Shown one piece after another: positions 10,885 to 16,114 of a DNA stretch of 28,397 nucleotides. The notes under the pieces are model-generated. The model saw nothing but the letters and a program-made list of their open reading frames with translations, searched no databases and was not told the DNA's origin. A program made the translations under genes and the position numbers. Position 1 is the stretch's first letter; each line of letters starts with the position of its first letter. Origin of the DNA: an uncultured Planctomycetales bacterium (GTDB lineage: Bacteria; Planctomycetota; Phycisphaerae; UBA1845; Fen-1342); contig CAYRXN010000088.1 of NCBI GenBank assembly GCA_964428275.1, positions 1 to 28,397 on the forward strand. The letters are read 5' to 3'.

Positions 10885-11160
10885 ATGCATGGCAGTTTCC
10901 GCCGACAGGACGGCCCCATTGTCAACCGCTGCCACGTCGGGGTCAATCATCACGGACCGGGCGGTGAGCGCAATGCCACGACGACAGTTGCCGCCATCGC
11001 CTGGGAGATCGCGCGCGGCGAGCATCCCGGGGCGGCGGCCGCCGTACTGGCGGCGCTGGTCCTGCTGGGAGTGGGAAGCGTGCTGAGCTGGAACAAGCGG
11101 ACCCTGCTGGAAGAGGCAAGGTCATCTGCGAACCACGACGGCTCCGCCGCGCGGCCGTGA
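10885..11160 (+). CDS. Hypothetical small protein (91 aa) with a C-terminal hydrophobic helix; doubtful
   Basis: ATG at 10885 within ORF track 10852..11160(+). GC3 is high as in real genes, but there is no convincing SD. It lies inside the 600-nt nfeD upstream region. Confidence 0.25.
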   Translation: MHGSFRRQDGPIVNRCHVGVNHHGPGGERNATTTVAAIAWEIARGEHPGAAAAVLAALVLLGVGSVLSWNKRTLLEEARSSANHDGSAARP

Positions 11161-11215
11161 CGACCCGGCCCACGCGCCGGTACGCGCCGATGCGCAACGC
11201 GGTCGGCGGACGGCC

Positions 11216-11246
11216 GCCCTCTCCCCCGATGCGTGGGGGAGAGGGC
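11216..11246 (-). terminator. GC-rich hairpin (12-bp perfect stem, 7-nt loop) 19 nt downstream of the SPFH gene stop; candidate U-tract-less intrinsic terminator
   Basis: gccctctccccc gatgcgt gggggagagggc read directly. No T-tract on either strand. Confidence 0.45.
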
Positions 11247-11264
11247 ACCGCCACCGCTGCCCCC

Positions 11265-12395
11265 TTACCCGCTCTCGGCGGGCTCGCGGATCAGCGAACG
11301 AACCTGCTGCGCGATGTCGCCGGAACCGAAGACGAACGTCGCCTTCATGCCGGCGAGCACCTCCTGGAGCAACTCCAGCTCCTTCATCCGCGCCAGCACC
11401 GGATTCTCCGCCAGGAGTTTCGCGGTGTTGGCCTGGCTGCGGGCCGCGGCGGTCTCCTCCCGCCGCTTGATCAGGTTCGCCTGGGCCCGCTTCTCGGCGG
11501 TGATGACCTGGTTGAGAATGGCCTTCATCTCGCCGGGCAGGATGATGTCGCGCAGACCCACGCTGCGCACCGTGACGCCGAACTCGGCCACCCGGCGCGC
11601 GATCGTGCCGCGAACCTCGCCGCTGACGGCCTCCTTGTCGCCGAGCAGGGCGTCGAGCGTGCGCGTACCGACCGCCGCCCGCAGCGCGAGCTGCGCCTCG
11701 CGGTAGAGCGCCTGGGTGGGGTCGCTGACGGTGGCCGCGGCCTTCTCGGCGTCGATCACCTGGAACGTCACCACCAGGTTCACGCGCAGCGTGACCTTGT
11801 CACGGGTCATGATCTCCTGGCCCGCCACGTCGACCATCTGCTCGCGCAGGTCCACCGACCGCCACACGATCCGGCCCGCGTTCTTCCAGAACACGTACCG
11901 GCCCTCGCGCAGCTTCTCGATCAGCCGGCCGTTGACGTACAGCAACACGACCTCGTGCGCGTCCACGTCGATGCCCTCGAAAAACGTGCGGGCGGCCGGG
12001 TGCGCCAGCACCGCATCGAGCCGCTTGTGCTCGAATCGCAGCGTCGCGACGTCGTACCGCTCGACCTCCAGTTTGTACGGCGTCTTCCAGAAGGCGTACC
12101 GGCCGGGGCCGAGCACCGCCAGCAAGCGGCCGTCTTTCCAGACCAGCGCACGTTCGTGGTCGGCCAGCTCGACGACCTCGAGCGCCTCACGCATGTCGGC
12201 GTGGCGGATCAGCACGTCGAGCAGGGCGTGATCGAAGCGCGTCTTGAGCGTGTCCACGACTTCGATCACCGACGCCCGGCGGCCCAGCAACCGCTCCCAG
12301 AGGCGATAGGTGCCCGGGCCGCGCAGTCCCTGGAAATCACCGTGGCGAAACGCCAGACCGCGCTCGTGCTGCTTGATGCGAACGGTGATGAACAT
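11265..12395 (-). CDS. SPFH/band-7 (stomatin/slipin-like) protein without an N-terminal TM helix, with a triplicated N-terminal beta-hairpin segment preceding the SPFH core
   Basis: Frame of ORF 11265..12716(-). Start placed at ATG 12395 (MFITVRIKQ), which has a strong SD (ccggAAAGGAGGtcgatcATG). SPFH core: TRDKVTLRVNLVVTFQVIDAEKAA ... C-terminal NPVLARMKELELLQEV. Three ~45-aa N-terminal repeats each carry a G(T/R)Y(R/A/V)(L/F)W motif: GPGTYRLWERLLG.., GPGRYAFWKTPYK.., REGRYVFWKNAGR... Confidence 0.85.
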   Translation of the reverse strand: MFITVRIKQHERGLAFRHGDFQGLRGPGTYRLWERLLGRRASVIEVVDTLKTRFDHALLDVLIRHADMREALEVVELADHERALVWKDGRLLAVLGPGRYAFWKTPYKLEVERYDVATLRFEHKRLDAVLAHPAARTFFEGIDVDAHEVVLLYVNGRLIEKLREGRYVFWKNAGRIVWRSVDLREQMVDVAGQEIMTRDKVTLRVNLVVTFQVIDAEKAAATVSDPTQALYREAQLALRAAVGTRTLDALLGDKEAVSGEVRGTIARRVAEFGVTVRSVGLRDIILPGEMKAILNQVITAEKRAQANLIKRREETAAARSQANTAKLLAENPVLARMKELELLQEVLAGMKATFVFGSGDIAQQVRSLIREPAESG

Positions 12396-12738
12396 GATCG
12401 ACCTCCTTTCCGGTCGCCCGTCAGAAAGCCCCCCGCGTGCGAGGGACGGAAACCTCTGTTGCGAATCGGGGTGCCGCACGTGCGGCCCGCCCCGCCGCAG
12501 CCGGAGGGGTGGCGCTTGAGGCACGCCGGGCCCGCCCCCACGACGCCCTTCCCGCCCCCCCTTGCACGGGCCGGAACGCCGTGGTGACGGTCTGCCGCGC
12601 CGGTATCCGCGCCGCCGCAGGTCCACTGCGCCGGTGTCGGTCGGCCCGCGGGGCGTCGTTCGGAGGCGACGAACGCCCGCAACGGGCCGCCGACCGGCAA
12701 GCCGCCGGCCAGTCACCCCGATTCACATGGTGCGAGGC

Positions 12739-12758
12739 GTTTCCGCCCAGGCGGAAAC
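12739..12758. other. Perfect 8-9-bp GC hairpin (gtttccgcc cag ggcggaaac) immediately 3' of the tRNA-like element on the minus strand
   Basis: Direct reading. No adjacent T-tract. Confidence 0.4.
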
Positions 12759-12793
12759 ACCCTCGTTGCGGACTGCACGTCACGCAACCCTCT

Positions 12794-12870
12794 TGGTGTC
12801 CAGGCGGGACTCGAACCCGCAACACACAGTGTCTCGCACTGTTGCATCTGCCCTTTGAGCTACTGGACGC
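12794..12870 (-). tRNA. tRNA-like element, degenerate: the T-arm and acceptor end are canonical, but the D-stem pairs poorly and the anticodon loop (GCGAGAC) lacks U33. Possible tRNA pseudogene, att-site remnant or unusual tRNA
   Basis: Minus-strand sequence GCGTCCAGTAGCTCAAAGGGCAGATGCAACAGTGCGAGACACTGTGTGTTGCGGGTTCGAGTCCCGCCTGGACACCA (77 nt). T-arm GCGGG-TTCGAGT-CCCGC, then CTGGAC-A-CCA. A hairpin ACAGT-GCGAGAC-ACTGT stands in the anticodon-arm position. TAGCTCA is a standard D-arm start, but no GAGC complement is found. Confidence 0.35.
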
Positions 12871-13194
12871 AACACCCGACGCACGTCTTGACTCCGTCGC
12901 GGAACACCCGCTGCAGACAACAAGTGTGCAGCGGCATGCCGGCGGCGTTCATCGAGTGATACGACTGTGTTCTCTCAGTGCCCGGTTCCCGAAACGGGAG
13001 TCGAGCACTGGTAACTTCATTCGTCCGCCCTGGTCTCCTGGTTGCCGGTTCCCGCCACTGCCCTGACTCCAGCCAGCGCGTGGGCCTGGCATTCACAATG
13101 GTGCCGCAGTGGGCGGCGGTCTCTGCGCCGGCCTACCGCCGGCGCGGGCGCGCAGTCCGGGTCCGGGCGGTGCGGATCGGTATCGCACGCAACC

Positions 13195-13229
13195 AAGAAA
13201 AAAGCCCCGAAGACGGCGGTCTCCGGGGC
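13195..13229 (-). terminator. Rho-independent terminator (minus strand): ~10-bp interrupted GC stem followed by UUUUUUCUU
   Basis: Plus strand aaccaagaaaaaa GCCCCG a AGAC GGCG GTCT c CGGGGC. On the minus strand the hairpin is followed by TTTTTTCTTGGTT. Confidence 0.7.
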
Positions 13230-13408
13230 AGACACGTTCTTTACGCAGAAAACGCAGCTACCCCGGCGGTTGCCCCCCGCCGCAAAGCCCATCGTCAGAC
13301 TGAGCGTACCGCTCGCCTGGAACCACTGGCACAATGCCAGGGCACCGGCGTATCTCAGTCGGCCGATCGAATTGTCTCATCGTTGCCCACATAGCCGTTC
13401 CAGTCTCA

Positions 13409-13489
13409 CCGCCCCGGCCACCCCGGCCACCCTGACCACCCCAGCTGCCCCGGCCACCCTGACCGCCCCGGCCGCCCCGGCCGCCCCGG
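13409..13489. repeat. 9-nt tandem repeat x9 (plus strand CCCCGGCCA-like; minus strand GGNGGCCGG/GGTGGTCAG), giving regularly spaced G3-4 tracts on the minus strand
   Basis: gccccggccaccccggccaccctgaccaccccagctgccccggccaccctgaccgccccggccgccccggccgccccgg read directly. Confidence 0.85.
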
Positions 13490-13518
13490 TGGGTGGCAGA
13501 TAACAAACGAAGGTAAGA

Positions 13519-13547
13519 ACTATACAACAGGTCCGAGAACAAGTCAA
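13519..13547 (-). promoter_or_regulatory. Near-consensus sigma70-type promoter on the minus strand: -35 TTGACT, 17-nt spacer, -10 TATAGT; lies in a ~120-nt AT-rich patch
   Basis: RC of 13519-13547 = TTGACTtgttctcggacctgttgTATAGT. The palindrome CAAGAGA-a-TCTCTTG (13545-13559) overlaps the -35 and its upstream flank. Confidence 0.5.
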
Positions 13548-13927
13548 GAGAATCTCTTGCATTTTCTTTGTAAGACACAAAGGCACTGTGGCACGAAGAC
13601 AACAGGGGTAGTGAAACAGTATGAAGAGCCGCGGTCTTTGACCCGCGCGGTACCCCACAACCTCGCCAGCTCGGTTCTGGCGGGTGGTGCCCACCCTGCC
13701 TGCAGCGGCGGCTTCCCTGCTCGTGGCCCCGGCCTGCAACCGGTGATCGACGTGGTCCCGAGCCGGGCCGCCGGCGTCGCCCTTGCAGGCCAGACGACCC
13801 CGAGGGCTCAGCCGCCGGCCGTCCCAGGGCTGCGATACGACCAGGGCACCCTGCCCCAGGAAGGCCCTTGTTCGCTTCGCGCGTTCCACTTACATCTCGC
13901 CCCCCCCGCGGACTTGAGCCACCGCCG

Positions 13928-15823
13928 CTATTTCGGATAGCCGATGGCCTTCAGGGCGGTCGTGATTTCGTCGAGAATCGTGGGGTCGTCGATCGTCGCG
14001 GGCATGCGCCACTCGTTGCCGTCGGCGATTTTCTTGATGGTGCCGCGGAGGATCTTGCCGCTGCGGGTCTTGGGCAGCCGATCGACGACGATGGCCGTCT
14101 TGAACGCGGCGACCGGACCGATCTTGTTTCGCACCGCCTGGATCAACTCCTTGACGATCTCGTCGTGCGGGCGATCGACCCCGGCCTTGAGCACCACGAA
14201 CCCGACCGGGATTTCGCCCTTGAGCGCATCGGCCACGCCGACCACGGCACACTCGGCCACGTCCGGGTGGCCCGCGAGCACCTCCTCCATCCCGCCGGTC
14301 GAGAGCCGGTGGCCGGCGACGTTAATGATGTCGTCGGTGCGGGCCATGATGTACAGATAGCCGTCTTCGTCCCGGTAGCCGGCGTCGGCGGTCGTGTAGT
14401 AACCCGGAAACTCGCTCAGATACGAGGACACGAAGCCCTCGTCGTTGTTCCACAGCGTCGGCAAACAGCCCGGCGGCAGCGGCAGCTTGACGGCGATGCT
14501 GCCGATCCTGCCCGGCTCCAGCTCGTGGCCGGCGTCGTCGAGAATCCGCACGTCGTAGCCCGGAGCGGCCTTGGTCGGCGAGCCCGGTTTGACCGGCAGC
14601 GGCTCGATGCCGAGGCAGTTGGCCGCGATCGCCCAGGCCGTCTCCGTCTGCCACCAGTGGTCGATCACCGGGACGCCGAGCAGGTTCTCCGCCCATTGCA
14701 GCGTATCCGGGTCGCAGCGTTCGCCGGCGAGGAAAAGCGCCCGCAGGCACGAGAGGTCGTACTTTCTCGCGTACTGGCCGCCGGGGTCTTCGCGTTTGAT
14801 GGCCCGGAACGCGGTCGGCGCCGTGAAGAGCACTTTGACGCCATGCTGCGAGATTACCCGCCAGAACGCGCCGGGATCGGGCGTGCCGACCGGCTTGCCC
14901 TCGTAGAGGATCGTCGTGCAGCCGTGCAGCAGCGGGGCGTAGACGATGTACGAATGGCCGACGACCCAGCCGATGTCCGACGCCGCCCAGTACACGTCGC
15001 CCGGCTCGACGTTGTAGATGTGCTTCATCGTCCATTTCATCGCGACGGCGTGTCCGCCGTGGTCGCGGACGACGCCCTTCGGGACGCCGGTAGTGCCGGA
15101 GGTGTAGAGGATGTAGAGCGGATCGGTGGCCGCGACCGAGACGCAATCGACCGCCTCGGCGGCTTCGAGCGCCGCAGCGAAGTCGAGATCGCGGCCGGCG
15201 ACGAGTTCGGCCGTCACCTGCGGGCGCTGGAGGATGATGCACTTCTCGGGCTTGGCGGCGGCCATGCGGATCGCTTCGTCGAGCAGCGGCTTGTAAGCGA
15301 TGATCTTCTTGCCCTCGATGCCGCACGAGGCCGAGACGATCACGCGCGGCCGGGCGTCGTCGATGCGCGTCGCGAGTTCCCGGGCCGCGAAGCCGCCGAA
15401 GACGACCGAATGGACCGCGCCGATGCGTGCGCAGGCGAGCATGGTCATGACGGCCTCGGGGACCATCGGCATGTAGACGATGACGCGGTCGCCCTTTTCG
15501 ACGCCGGCGGCGCGCAGCATTCCGGCGATGTGCGCGACTTTGTCGCGCAACTGGCGGTAGGTGTACGTTCTTGTCGTATCGGTGACCGGGCTGTCGTAGA
15601 CCAGGGCGGGCTGATCGGCGCGGCCTTCGTCCACGTGGCGGTCGAGGGCGTTGTAACAGGTGTTGAGCATGCCGCCGGCGAACCAGCGGAAGAAGGGCGG
15701 GTTCGAGTCGTCCAGGACGCGCTCCCACTTCCTGTCCCAGCGGATCGCTTCGGCGGCCTCGGCCCAGAAGCCTTCGCGATCGTCGATGGAGCGGCGATAG
15801 ACGGATTCGTAGGTCTGGCTCAT
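13928..15823 (-). CDS. prpE: Propionate--CoA ligase-like acyl-CoA synthetase (Acs/PrpE family, AMP-forming), 631 aa
   Basis: Frame of ORF 13928..15979(-). Start placed at ATG 15823 (MSQTYESVYRRSIDDREGFWAEAA), which has SD GGGAGG 7 nt upstream. Strong similarity in motif order to PrpE/Acs: YMPMVPEAVMTMLACARIGAVHSVVFGGFA, YTSGTTGVPKG, WQTETAW, ARTDDIINVAGHRLSTGGMEE, LPKTRSGKILR. Confidence 0.9.
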   Translation of the reverse strand: MSQTYESVYRRSIDDREGFWAEAAEAIRWDRKWERVLDDSNPPFFRWFAGGMLNTCYNALDRHVDEGRADQPALVYDSPVTDTTRTYTYRQLRDKVAHIAGMLRAAGVEKGDRVIVYMPMVPEAVMTMLACARIGAVHSVVFGGFAARELATRIDDARPRVIVSASCGIEGKKIIAYKPLLDEAIRMAAAKPEKCIILQRPQVTAELVAGRDLDFAAALEAAEAVDCVSVAATDPLYILYTSGTTGVPKGVVRDHGGHAVAMKWTMKHIYNVEPGDVYWAASDIGWVVGHSYIVYAPLLHGCTTILYEGKPVGTPDPGAFWRVISQHGVKVLFTAPTAFRAIKREDPGGQYARKYDLSCLRALFLAGERCDPDTLQWAENLLGVPVIDHWWQTETAWAIAANCLGIEPLPVKPGSPTKAAPGYDVRILDDAGHELEPGRIGSIAVKLPLPPGCLPTLWNNDEGFVSSYLSEFPGYYTTADAGYRDEDGYLYIMARTDDIINVAGHRLSTGGMEEVLAGHPDVAECAVVGVADALKGEIPVGFVVLKAGVDRPHDEIVKELIQAVRNKIGPVAAFKTAIVVDRLPKTRSGKILRGTIKKIADGNEWRMPATIDDPTILDEITTALKAIGYPK

Positions 15824-15918
15824 GGCGGTGCCTCCCGGGTGGTAAGGGTGATCGCCATTGTAGTCGAGGGCCCACCCGCCGCCGAGTGCGGCCGGGCGTT
15901 CGAAAGATTCGCCGGCGC

Positions 15919-15924
15919 TATAAT
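15919..15924 (+). promoter_or_regulatory. Perfect TATAAT hexamer in the prpE-sppA divergent region (candidate -10 for sppA, ~190 nt upstream)
   Basis: ggcgcTATAATgtcgcc read directly. No good -35 is seen. Confidence 0.25.
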
Positions 15925-16114
15925 GTCGCCGCGAGCGGAGGGCGGGTAGGATGCGTACTCCGGGGCCGGCGAGCCGCACCCGGAAGCAACTTTTCCGACC
16001 GTTGCGGGAATAAAGGACAAGCCGCCGCGAATATCAATCCGACTGCCCGCCTCCGCGGCGTGCGGCGGCGGACAGACACGTGCGAGCAAACTCGACATCC
16101 AAGGGAGACACACG

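Follow-up and report, generated by a model that had tools for sequence, protein, structure and literature searches.

What is a short transcription unit with its own promoter, a G-rich tandem repeat, and its own terminator doing in a gap between genes of a planctomycete? We ask this of a 28,397-nucleotide contig (CAYRXN010000088.1; "the window" denotes the whole of this stretch) from an uncultured Planctomycetales bacterium of the Phycisphaerae, in which such a unit lies between prpE and a tRNA-like element that is followed by a slipin (stomatin-like SPFH/Band-7) gene. An earlier reading made from the letters alone (hereafter, the sequence-only reading) took the unit to be a stand-alone, non-coding small RNA (sRNA) whose core is a repeat prone to form G-quadruplexes (G4s). 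Comparison with related loci suggests another answer, to which we assign a probability of about 0.65: the unit would be a ribosome-sensing leader, or attenuator, of an operon composed of the tRNA-like element and the slipin gene, with a lineage-specific G-rich repeat in its 5' untranslated region (5'UTR).

The unit is discrete, about 317 nt long, and lies on the minus strand, as do the features below unless otherwise specified. It begins at a strong sigma70-type promoter, TTGACT-17-TATAGT (13547..13519; -35 hexamer TTGACT at 13547-13542, -10 hexamer TATAGT at 13524-13519; 10/12 matches), which is the sole match in 11000-16000, where shuffled sequences lead us to expect 0.2, and from which transcription of the leader is predicted to start near 13511. 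It ends at a strong intrinsic terminator (13195..13229), in which an 11-bp stem, GCCCCGGAGAC/GUCUUCGGGGC at 13229..13204 (-20.7 kcal/mol; 8 of the 11 pairs are G-C), is followed by UUUUUUCUU, and the tail TTTTTTCTT runs to 13195. The sequence-only reading had placed both elements here, and both are confirmed, the promoter as a near-consensus match above chance and the terminator with its stem and U-run on the minus strand.

The same arrangement recurs in front of the same gene in other genomes. We compared the locus with 80 loci from a slipin scan of metagenomes and with 13 more from look-ups of the closest slipin homologues. By BLASTN against the slipin loci, only the tRNA-like part of the 1.5-kb island between prpE and the slipin gene is detectable. 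A TTGAC-N16-18-TAnnnT promoter lies 370-730 nt (mostly 470-600 nt) upstream of the T-loop of the tRNA-like element in 23 high-GC lineages (group A, 15 close ones; group B, 8 more distant ones), and a short open reading frame (ORF) comes after it; in most of the 23, a strong hairpin or terminator is found about 200-380 nt past the promoter, the terminators having 5-7 U. The shared order is promoter, short ORF, stable hairpin, tRNA-like element, slipin gene. The nearest syntenic relative, L164 (prpE, gap, tRNA-like element, slipin; slipin 83% identical), has a homologous promoter, TTGACT-16-TATACT, and a terminator stem in which one base differs (C to U at the 3' end). Equivalent terminators are present in 12 other lineages, with hairpins of -16 to -27 kcal/mol, and the 5' arm GCCCCGGAG recurs in 6 lineages. 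What had been described as a gene-free island of 1.5 kb is thus better described as the conserved 5' region of the slipin gene, and it holds an ORF of 44 codons.

This ORF (13258..13392; 44 codons plus stop, MWATMRQFDRPTEIRRCPGIVPVVPGERYAQSDDGLCGGGQPPG) is a conserved element of the locus. Its counterpart in L164 is exactly 135 nt long and free of indels, with 48 of the 135 bases (36%) different, and the flanking non-coding DNA of the two loci is full of indels. The two peptides have the motifs MW..M.QF.R..E.RRC and DD.LCGGG.PPG in common, and these include a conserved start (MW..M.QF) and a conserved end (LCGGG.PPG). Counterparts of the ORF were found in 13 close and 8 more distant lineages. 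In 13 group-A lineages, the ORF ends with Pro-Pro-Gly-stop, or with PPSG, PPR, or PPQR, and the codons of this terminal motif are fixed at their first and second positions and vary at the third (CCG/CCT/CCA, CCG/CCC/CCA/CCT, GGG/GGA/GGC). The stop codons, counted over 14 lineages with L114 included, are TAG (nine), TGA (four), and TAA (one). Insertions come in multiples of three: two group-A lineages have 3 additional nucleotides (PPSG), and the group-B pair L113/L110 is distinguished by a 3-nt indel. We estimate that 800 nt of this base composition would contain CCNCCNGGN-stop about 0.03 times by chance. In addition, a Shine-Dalgarno (SD)-like GGAG, GGGAG, or AGGAG precedes an in-frame ATG or GTG by 6-14 nt in most lineages.

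The sequence-only reading had stated that no ORF here is preceded by an SD site, which is narrowly true of the window and does not extend to most of its relatives, and it had set aside the 44-codon ORF as insignificant, a judgment that the exact length in L164 and the Pro-Pro ending in 13 lineages overturn. It had also named a conserved coding frame with ribosome footprints among the findings that would contradict its non-coding interpretation, and on comparative grounds a conserved frame is present.

The product of the ORF presents a different picture. The differences between the window and L164 are spread over the three codon positions as 15/15/18, and codon-position tests (the window against L164, and L113 against L109) show no purifying selection on the peptide body, which appears near-neutral. 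The leader peptides range from 22 to about 60 amino acids in length across lineages, and searches of eight of them against Pfam and NCBIfam returned nothing. Because the ratio of nonsynonymous to synonymous change lends no support, the coding claim rests on frame, length, start, stop, and terminal motif. A frame, a start, and a stop that are kept without a conserved product are the signature of a leader peptide, and a near-neutral body would be typical of cases in which the act of translation matters rather than the product. We infer from this pattern that the leader ORF is probably translated.

The end of the ORF also appears to be tied to the terminator. Specifically, the last codons and the stop, CCGGGGUAG, are predicted to pair with CUGCCCCGG in the 5' arm of the terminator, forming an antiterminator hairpin (13223..13266; -25.4 kcal/mol) whose inner helix adds stability to this pairing. 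The pairing of the last codons and stop with the arm is predicted in the window and in L164, L086, L088, L092, L166, L169, L171, L172, and L176, and the hairpin predicted for the nascent RNA that extends from the end of the ORF through the terminator arm has about -20 to -31 kcal/mol (-14.7 in L101). In 9 of 13 lineages, no other of 158 upstream windows pairs with the arm as well as the end of the ORF does, and the gap between stop and arm is constant, at 23-35 nt. Where the terminator stem is altered, the end of the ORF is altered alongside it (CCUCGUGGGC in L092, GCCCUGCGGG in L171, GCCCUGAAGGA in L172, and GCCCUGGAGG in L176). Cognate pairs of ORF end and arm have a pairing energy of -17.7 kcal/mol versus -15.4 kcal/mol for permuted pairs; 30 of 20,000 permutations were as good, as were 66 of 40,320 when each arm type was represented once. 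As judged by these sequence comparisons, the pairing of ORF end and terminator arm covaries across lineages.

The unit looks like a leader and attenuator because the antiterminator overlaps the stop of the ORF and because no other recognizable promoter lies downstream: between the terminator (13195) and the slipin start (12395), we found no sigma70-like promoter and no consistent sigma54-like site. The mechanism that we propose is as follows. Transcription would begin near 13511, and the 44-codon leader ORF (13392-13258) would be translated. Its last codons and stop (CCG GGG UAG) would serve as the 5' strand of the antiterminator, which sequesters the 5' arm of the terminator (13229-13204). 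A ribosome positioned on Pro-Pro-Gly-stop would block the antiterminator, so that the terminator could fold and a leader RNA of about 317 nt would be released. If leader translation were absent, slow, or stalled upstream, the antiterminator would form, and transcription would read through into the tRNA-like element and the slipin gene. By the logic of trp-type attenuators and of the whiB7 upstream ORF (uORF), the operon would then be induced by translation stress. Termination at this site is thus likely to depend on the ribosome and expression of the downstream genes on read-through, with the slipin presumed to be the regulated gene. The promoter-to-terminator unit that the sequence-only reading had recognized therefore stands, while its independence finds no support, since the antiterminator makes it leader-like.

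Several observations weigh against this interpretation. The SD-like sequence in the window, GGUGAG, is weak and lies 12 nt from the ATG, and the codon usage of the ORF, by reading of the sequence, is atypical for the genome. The need for pairing (CCNCCGGGG versus CCCCGGNGG) alone explains part of the conservation of Pro-Pro-Gly. The antiterminator pairing is weak or non-unique in 3 of the 13 lineages (L091, L101, and L174), and the group-B relatives have an ORF and a large hairpin with no clear antiterminator. A promoter of an unrecognized type ahead of the tRNA-like element is possible. Finally, the leader ORFs contain no run of codons for one amino acid, the terminal Pro-Pro alone being conserved; a translation-stress subtype is nevertheless compatible with this absence, since the whiB7 leader also lacks such a run. 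As a separate observation on group B, the ATG of the leader ORF in L106-L113 lies 10-11 nt past the -10 hexamer (MHPNY..., MNHQ..., MYSN...), which makes these mRNAs nearly leaderless, and the ORF is followed by alternative hairpins (GCUCUUC / GGAGAGC / GCUCUCC) and a hairpin of 15-17 bp.

Where does the G-rich repeat fit into this scheme? The 5'UTR of the leader transcript (13393..13511) is about 119 nt long, compared with about 46 nt for its counterpart in L164, and contains nine 9-nt G-rich units (CCGGGGCGG and variants; 13408..13489) with G4-type motifs, in frame with the leader ORF. As a tandem array, the repeat spans 13412-13489 with a period of 9 and 8.7 copies (periods of 18 and 27 describe the same array), and a degenerate two-unit pattern has 7 matches, all within the tract, versus 0.22 expected. 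The sequence-only reading had the nine units open the transcript; the units are there, and they begin about 22 nt past the predicted start. The canonical G4 pattern that it had seen on the RNA and the non-template strand is also there: the tract has nine runs of three or more G, giving two non-overlapping canonical G4 motifs (at least four such runs with loops of 1-7 nt); the minus strand of the window has five such motifs in all, these two included, and the plus strand has none. G4 prediction with G4Hunter, which that reading had proposed as a check, gives a mean of 1.55 over the tract, for a criterion of about 1.5 or more. Elsewhere in the window, the strongest G4Hunter peak (2.28) is at 12531-12561, between the tRNA-like element and the slipin start, and holds the canonical G4 motif GGGGGGGCGGGAAGGGCGTCGTGGGGGCGGG, whose core, AGGGGGGGCGGGAAGGG, is invariant in L164, unlike the 9-nt repeat.

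Three independent assemblies of the same species (L081, L082, and L083) carry the region without indels at 99.6-99.8% identity, so the repeat is not an assembly artifact; its copy number is identical in all four assemblies, a small sample. It is absent from L164 and from every other lineage examined, and Tandem Repeats Finder detected no comparable repeat in the related loci. Given this absence, the repeat is an insertion specific to the species, placed after the promoter and before the conserved part of the unit; as far as the compared sequences indicate, it expanded recently within the 5'UTR. Thus, the promoter and terminator recur in relatives, whereas the repeat is found in this species only and is not supported as the functional core. 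Moreover, when G-quadruplex energies were included in ViennaRNA, the minimum free energy (MFE) predicted at four transcript lengths equaled that of the duplex-only model, with no G4 formed. Compared with the RNA G-quadruplexes of bacterial 5'UTRs, the tract is similar in having more than four copies of G3+N1-7 on the RNA and the non-template strand just past a promoter; it differs in that it is not conserved, is not favored by the energy model, and lies in a genome of 68% GC with abundant competing C-rich partners.

The repeat does complement the terminator arm, because its unit CCGGGGC is the complement of GCCCCGG: upstream of the stop, the only strong complements of the 5' arm are the end of the ORF (-19.5 kcal/mol) and the repeat (to -26.3 kcal/mol). 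The idea that the repeat units act as decoy antiterminators received only partial support, as the MFE structure of the nascent RNA forms the local antiterminator at the end of the ORF and the repeat pairs elsewhere. We conjecture that the repeat at most tunes the switch, by lowering leader translation, by decoy pairing, or through a G4 or an R-loop on the non-template strand. It is possible instead, although we would not bet on it, that the repeat is neutral junk of slipped-strand origin, a chance expansion that the 5'UTR tolerated and that leaves the switch unaffected. Its species-specificity and its simple 9-nt unit fit this view, as does the occurrence of its 20-mer pattern in 106 unrelated viral contigs in a scan of such contigs; the latter also means that the 20-mer is a generic GC-rich, low-complexity pattern that is uninformative on origin. 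On the other hand, the repeat occupies a stretch whose structure ought to matter, past the promoter and ahead of the start codon of a translation-sensing leader, it is the only strong complement of the arm besides the end of the ORF, and it shows no variation in length among the four assemblies. Neutrality of the repeat is compatible with the attenuator explanation of the unit as a whole. We give almost no credence to a further possibility, in which the repeat itself is translated from a non-AUG start (TTG at 13507-13505) to give an 83-amino-acid protein with an (RGG)n N-terminal extension fused to the 44-codon ORF. In its favor, the repeat period is divisible by 3, the RGG frame runs open into that of the 44-codon ORF (an ORF of 114 amino acids, 13258..13602), and, when the units are read in that frame, 7 of their 11 differences are silent exchanges of GGC and GGT. 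However, mutation bias would produce such C-to-T transitions just as readily, and they fall in the G4 "loops"; the sole in-frame start past the transcription start is this TTG, 4-7 nt from the 5' end and without an SD site; the transcript contains no ATG or GTG ahead of 13392; and such an extension is found in no relative.

For the unit as a whole, the main rival to the leader interpretation is a functional small protein with its own terminator. According to this rival, the 44-amino-acid peptide is functional (for example, as a partner of the slipin), the terminator ends its mRNA, and the downstream genes are separately promoted. The conserved position, frame, and C-terminal motif of the ORF would be expected in that case, as would the strong terminators and the short motifs common to the window and L164. 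Against it, the peptide body is near-neutral and varies widely in length, neither Pfam nor NCBIfam recognizes it, and the second promoter that it calls for was not found. It also leaves unexplained why the stop region and the terminator arm should be complementary and covary, and we therefore consider it unlikely. Quite improbable, too, is a terminated RNA of about 317 nt that acts in trans as an sRNA or has a dual function, with the G-rich repeat forming a G4 or acting as a sponge for C-rich targets or for a protein. Leader RNAs derived from attenuators and having functions in trans are known, such as rnTrpL of Sinorhizobium, and the repeat offers some encouragement, with its nine G-runs, its G4Hunter score, two of the five G4 motifs of the window, a stable copy number, and variation among units that falls mostly in the would-be loops while every run keeps at least GGG. 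The sRNA interpretation is partly supported. Nevertheless, the closest relative and 20-plus other lineages lack the repeat while conserving the remainder of the unit, the MFE structure contains no G4, and the fold of the whole transcript has no unusual stability (z = -1.5). The Rfam scan that the sequence-only reading had proposed yielded no family covering the unit, either at the gathering threshold on the whole window or at E <= 10 on 12700-14000; apart from the tRNA, the terminator accounted for the matches, all of them weak, with anti-hemB at 18.4 bits and isrL at 17.1 bits falling well short of their cut-offs, and 13 related loci gave tRNA matches only. The promoter and terminator expected of a trans-acting sRNA are present, whereas the unit contains a conserved, apparently translated frame and shows neither a conserved seed nor a family match. 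Finally, the unit could be the translation-stress sensor of an undescribed RNA-protein module, with a leader RNA that is possibly dual-function, a proposal that we regard as very doubtful. Such a module may consist of a soluble slipin, modeled with a layout like that of the major vault protein (three beta repeats, an SPFH "shoulder," and a long helix), and one to three tRNA-like elements with unconstrained anticodon loops. In this species its leader RNA, with the nine G-runs, might both encode a peptide and either act in trans or serve as cargo or as a decoy in antitermination, by way of G4 or C-rich pairing.

Some further features surround the promoter. It sits inside the only AT-rich patch of the window, as the sequence-only reading had claimed and as a scan of the whole 28.4 kb bears out: 100-nt windows with a GC content of 0.48 or less start only at 13476-13546, for a window GC of 0.68. 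A perfect 7-bp inverted repeat, CAAGAGA-T-TCTCTTG (13559-13545), likewise seen before, overlaps the -35 hexamer and may be an operator; it is not present in L164, and the repressor control that the sequence-only reading had suggested for it is not supported. By eye, different GAA/TTC-type palindromes lie at the -35 position in some other lineages. Between the window and L081-L083, 5 of 6 single-nucleotide polymorphisms lie within 140 nt around the promoter (1.7 kb compared; a small sample), at 13516, 13525, 13639, 13642, and 13652; two of these flank the -10 hexamer, and none falls in the transcript body. The GC-rich stretch of about 300 nt between the prpE stop and the AT-rich patch (13620-13927) has no assigned feature, and its counterpart in L164 is a much shorter spacer holding a prpE terminator.

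The spacer between the terminator and the tRNA-like element (12870..13194) is conserved with L164 in its 3' third, including GGGTGTTCCGCGAC at about 12912-12897, and neither a sigma70- nor a sigma54-like promoter was found in it. The tRNA-like element itself is 75 nt long (12795..12869) and had been called degenerate by the sequence-only reading; it does score as a tRNA (37.9 bits in Rfam; Leu(GAG) by ARAGORN), and it is also non-canonical, failing as a tRNA-Leu for lack of a long variable arm and by its C33 and its C1-A72 mismatch. Its anticodon, GAG in the window, is GGT in L164, with compensatory changes in the stem. In more than 45 loci, whose genomes span 38-72% GC, members of this slipin subfamily are preceded by one such element, or by two to three in tandem, 190-1000 nt upstream of the slipin gene and on the same strand. 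Their "anticodons" follow no pattern: there are ten UUA (stop) loops, 2- and 4-base loops, and Leu and Ser types without the long arm. Judging from these sequences, the elements are probably not tRNAs that decode. Groups A and B both conserve two short motifs, namely, GCGTGT(T/A)CCGCGA about 40 nt upstream of the tRNA-like element (about 12897-12912) and, immediately past that element (12720-12790), a hairpin with CACC(A/G)..GTGA after it; both may be processing or protein-binding sites. In L171 (about 2020-2065) and L174 (about 1990-2035), a second T-loop, GGTTCGAGTCC, with a short stem directly follows the tRNA-like element and resembles a T-arm/acceptor mini-helix without D or anticodon arms.

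The slipin gene (11265..12395) has the SD sequence AAGGAGG, and its true start is MFITV at 12395. Homologs annotated as "slipin family protein" come from Phycisphaerae and other Planctomycetota. The structure predicted for the protein (predicted local distance difference test score, 85) shows a set of three five-stranded beta repeats at the N terminus along with an SPFH domain and a long helix; it lacks a membrane segment. A PADLOC search with the slipin, NfeD, and the second SPFH protein was negative, the neighborhood of the locus contains no Rsr or RtcB gene, and our literature searches found no description of an association between a tRNA-like element and an SPFH protein or slipin. The closest likeness for the tRNA-like neighbor, as distinct from the unit, is YrlA of the rsr-yrlA-rtcBA type of operon, with which it has in common conserved D and T arms, the lack of a decoding identity, and a stress-type operon; it differs in that the YrlA and Y RNA scores here are 16.6-17.1 bits, far below cut-offs of 69-80. 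The rtc operon uses a sigma54-type promoter, and in this respect it resembles distant low-GC relatives of the slipin module. A translational-stress regulon of Anabaena includes a slipin gene, not necessarily an ortholog of the one here, that shows 42-fold induction along with RtcB and a tRNA array (PMC10272220).

The module seems, from its flanking sequences, to come with two interchangeable control regions in equivalent positions. In all 12 low-GC loci (L120, L124, L125, L127-L130, L132, L135, L136, L139, and L142), a sigma54-type TGGCAC-N5-TTG(T/A) lies 84-102 nt upstream of the first tRNA-like element, and these relatives are without the leader ORF unit; a search for sigma54 sites in the high-GC lineages found no consistent site. 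The equivalent positions of the two control regions support, without proving, control by read-through. An apparent sigma70 promoter about 540 nt upstream in the low-GC loci L120-L139 was set aside, as the region is most likely an opposite-strand conserved gene, and these loci were left uncounted.

On the other side of the unit, prpE (13928-15823) is the flanking upstream gene. A genome scan with PrpE gave 80 loci (L001-L080) of 70-80% identity from many phyla, and these showed no synteny with the window and no intergenic similarity. The closest PrpE relatives (72-80% identity) belong to phyla that include Chloroflexota, Proteobacteria, Acidobacteriota, and Desulfobacterota, so PrpE is either highly conserved or else horizontally mobile.

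Among known systems, the closest in logic is the whiB7 leader of mycobacteria and other actinobacteria, in which a uORF that varies in length and sequence precedes a terminator, and efficient translation leads to termination, while impaired translation leads to an antiterminator and read-through (PMC10274678). The locus described here resembles it in having a variable uORF, a rho-independent terminator, and an antiterminator, all predicted from sequence in our case. It differs in belonging to the Planctomycetota (Phycisphaerae), with no sequence relation; in that Pro-Pro-(Ser)-Gly/Arg-stop itself provides the antiterminator strand, with no enrichment for Ala; and in that a tRNA-like RNA and a slipin would be regulated rather than a transcription factor. 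In trp-type attenuators, a 2:3 antiterminator competes with a 3:4 terminator, and a ribosome at the leader stop masks region 2. The trpL, hisL, pheL, and leuL leaders thus resemble the present unit in their leader ORF, in the exclusive 2:3 and 3:4 structures, and in the masking of region 2 by a ribosome at the stop; they differ in that our leader has no codon run for a single amino acid and the genes downstream are not biosynthetic. For pheL, its role as a leader-peptide attenuator is documented (PMC3082878). Only the window and L164 show what may be a 1:2 hairpin (GGCGG/CCGCC, 13282-13266).

The Pro-Pro ending invites comparison with mgtL and mgtP of Salmonella, which are leader ORFs with proline codons; PPG is a strong stall motif. 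The likeness lies in consecutive Pro codons in a short leader ORF beside alternative RNA structures, and the difference is that Pro-Pro stands here at the very end of the ORF. Since a ribosome stalled on Pro-Pro at the end of the ORF still masks the antiterminator, such a stall should prolong termination rather than relieve it. Effects of EF-P and of coupling on terminators have been documented (PMC5021804, PMC8129111).

To our knowledge, regulatory RNAs and attenuators are almost undescribed in the Planctomycetota. The locus provides an example of a putative attenuator defined from sequence, with Pro-Pro-Gly-stop as the antiterminator strand, in at least 13 Phycisphaerae-type lineages. It also holds a lesson for the scanning of genomes, as the eye-catching G4-type repeat is the least conserved part of the locus. 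The proposed attenuator is attached to an unexplained and possibly more interesting RNA-protein module. The locus joins a translation-sensing leader, a tRNA-like RNA that is unlikely to be a normal decoder, and a soluble protein of the stomatin family, an association not previously known, and this three-part link suggests a stress function for a widespread and uncharacterized subfamily of slipins.

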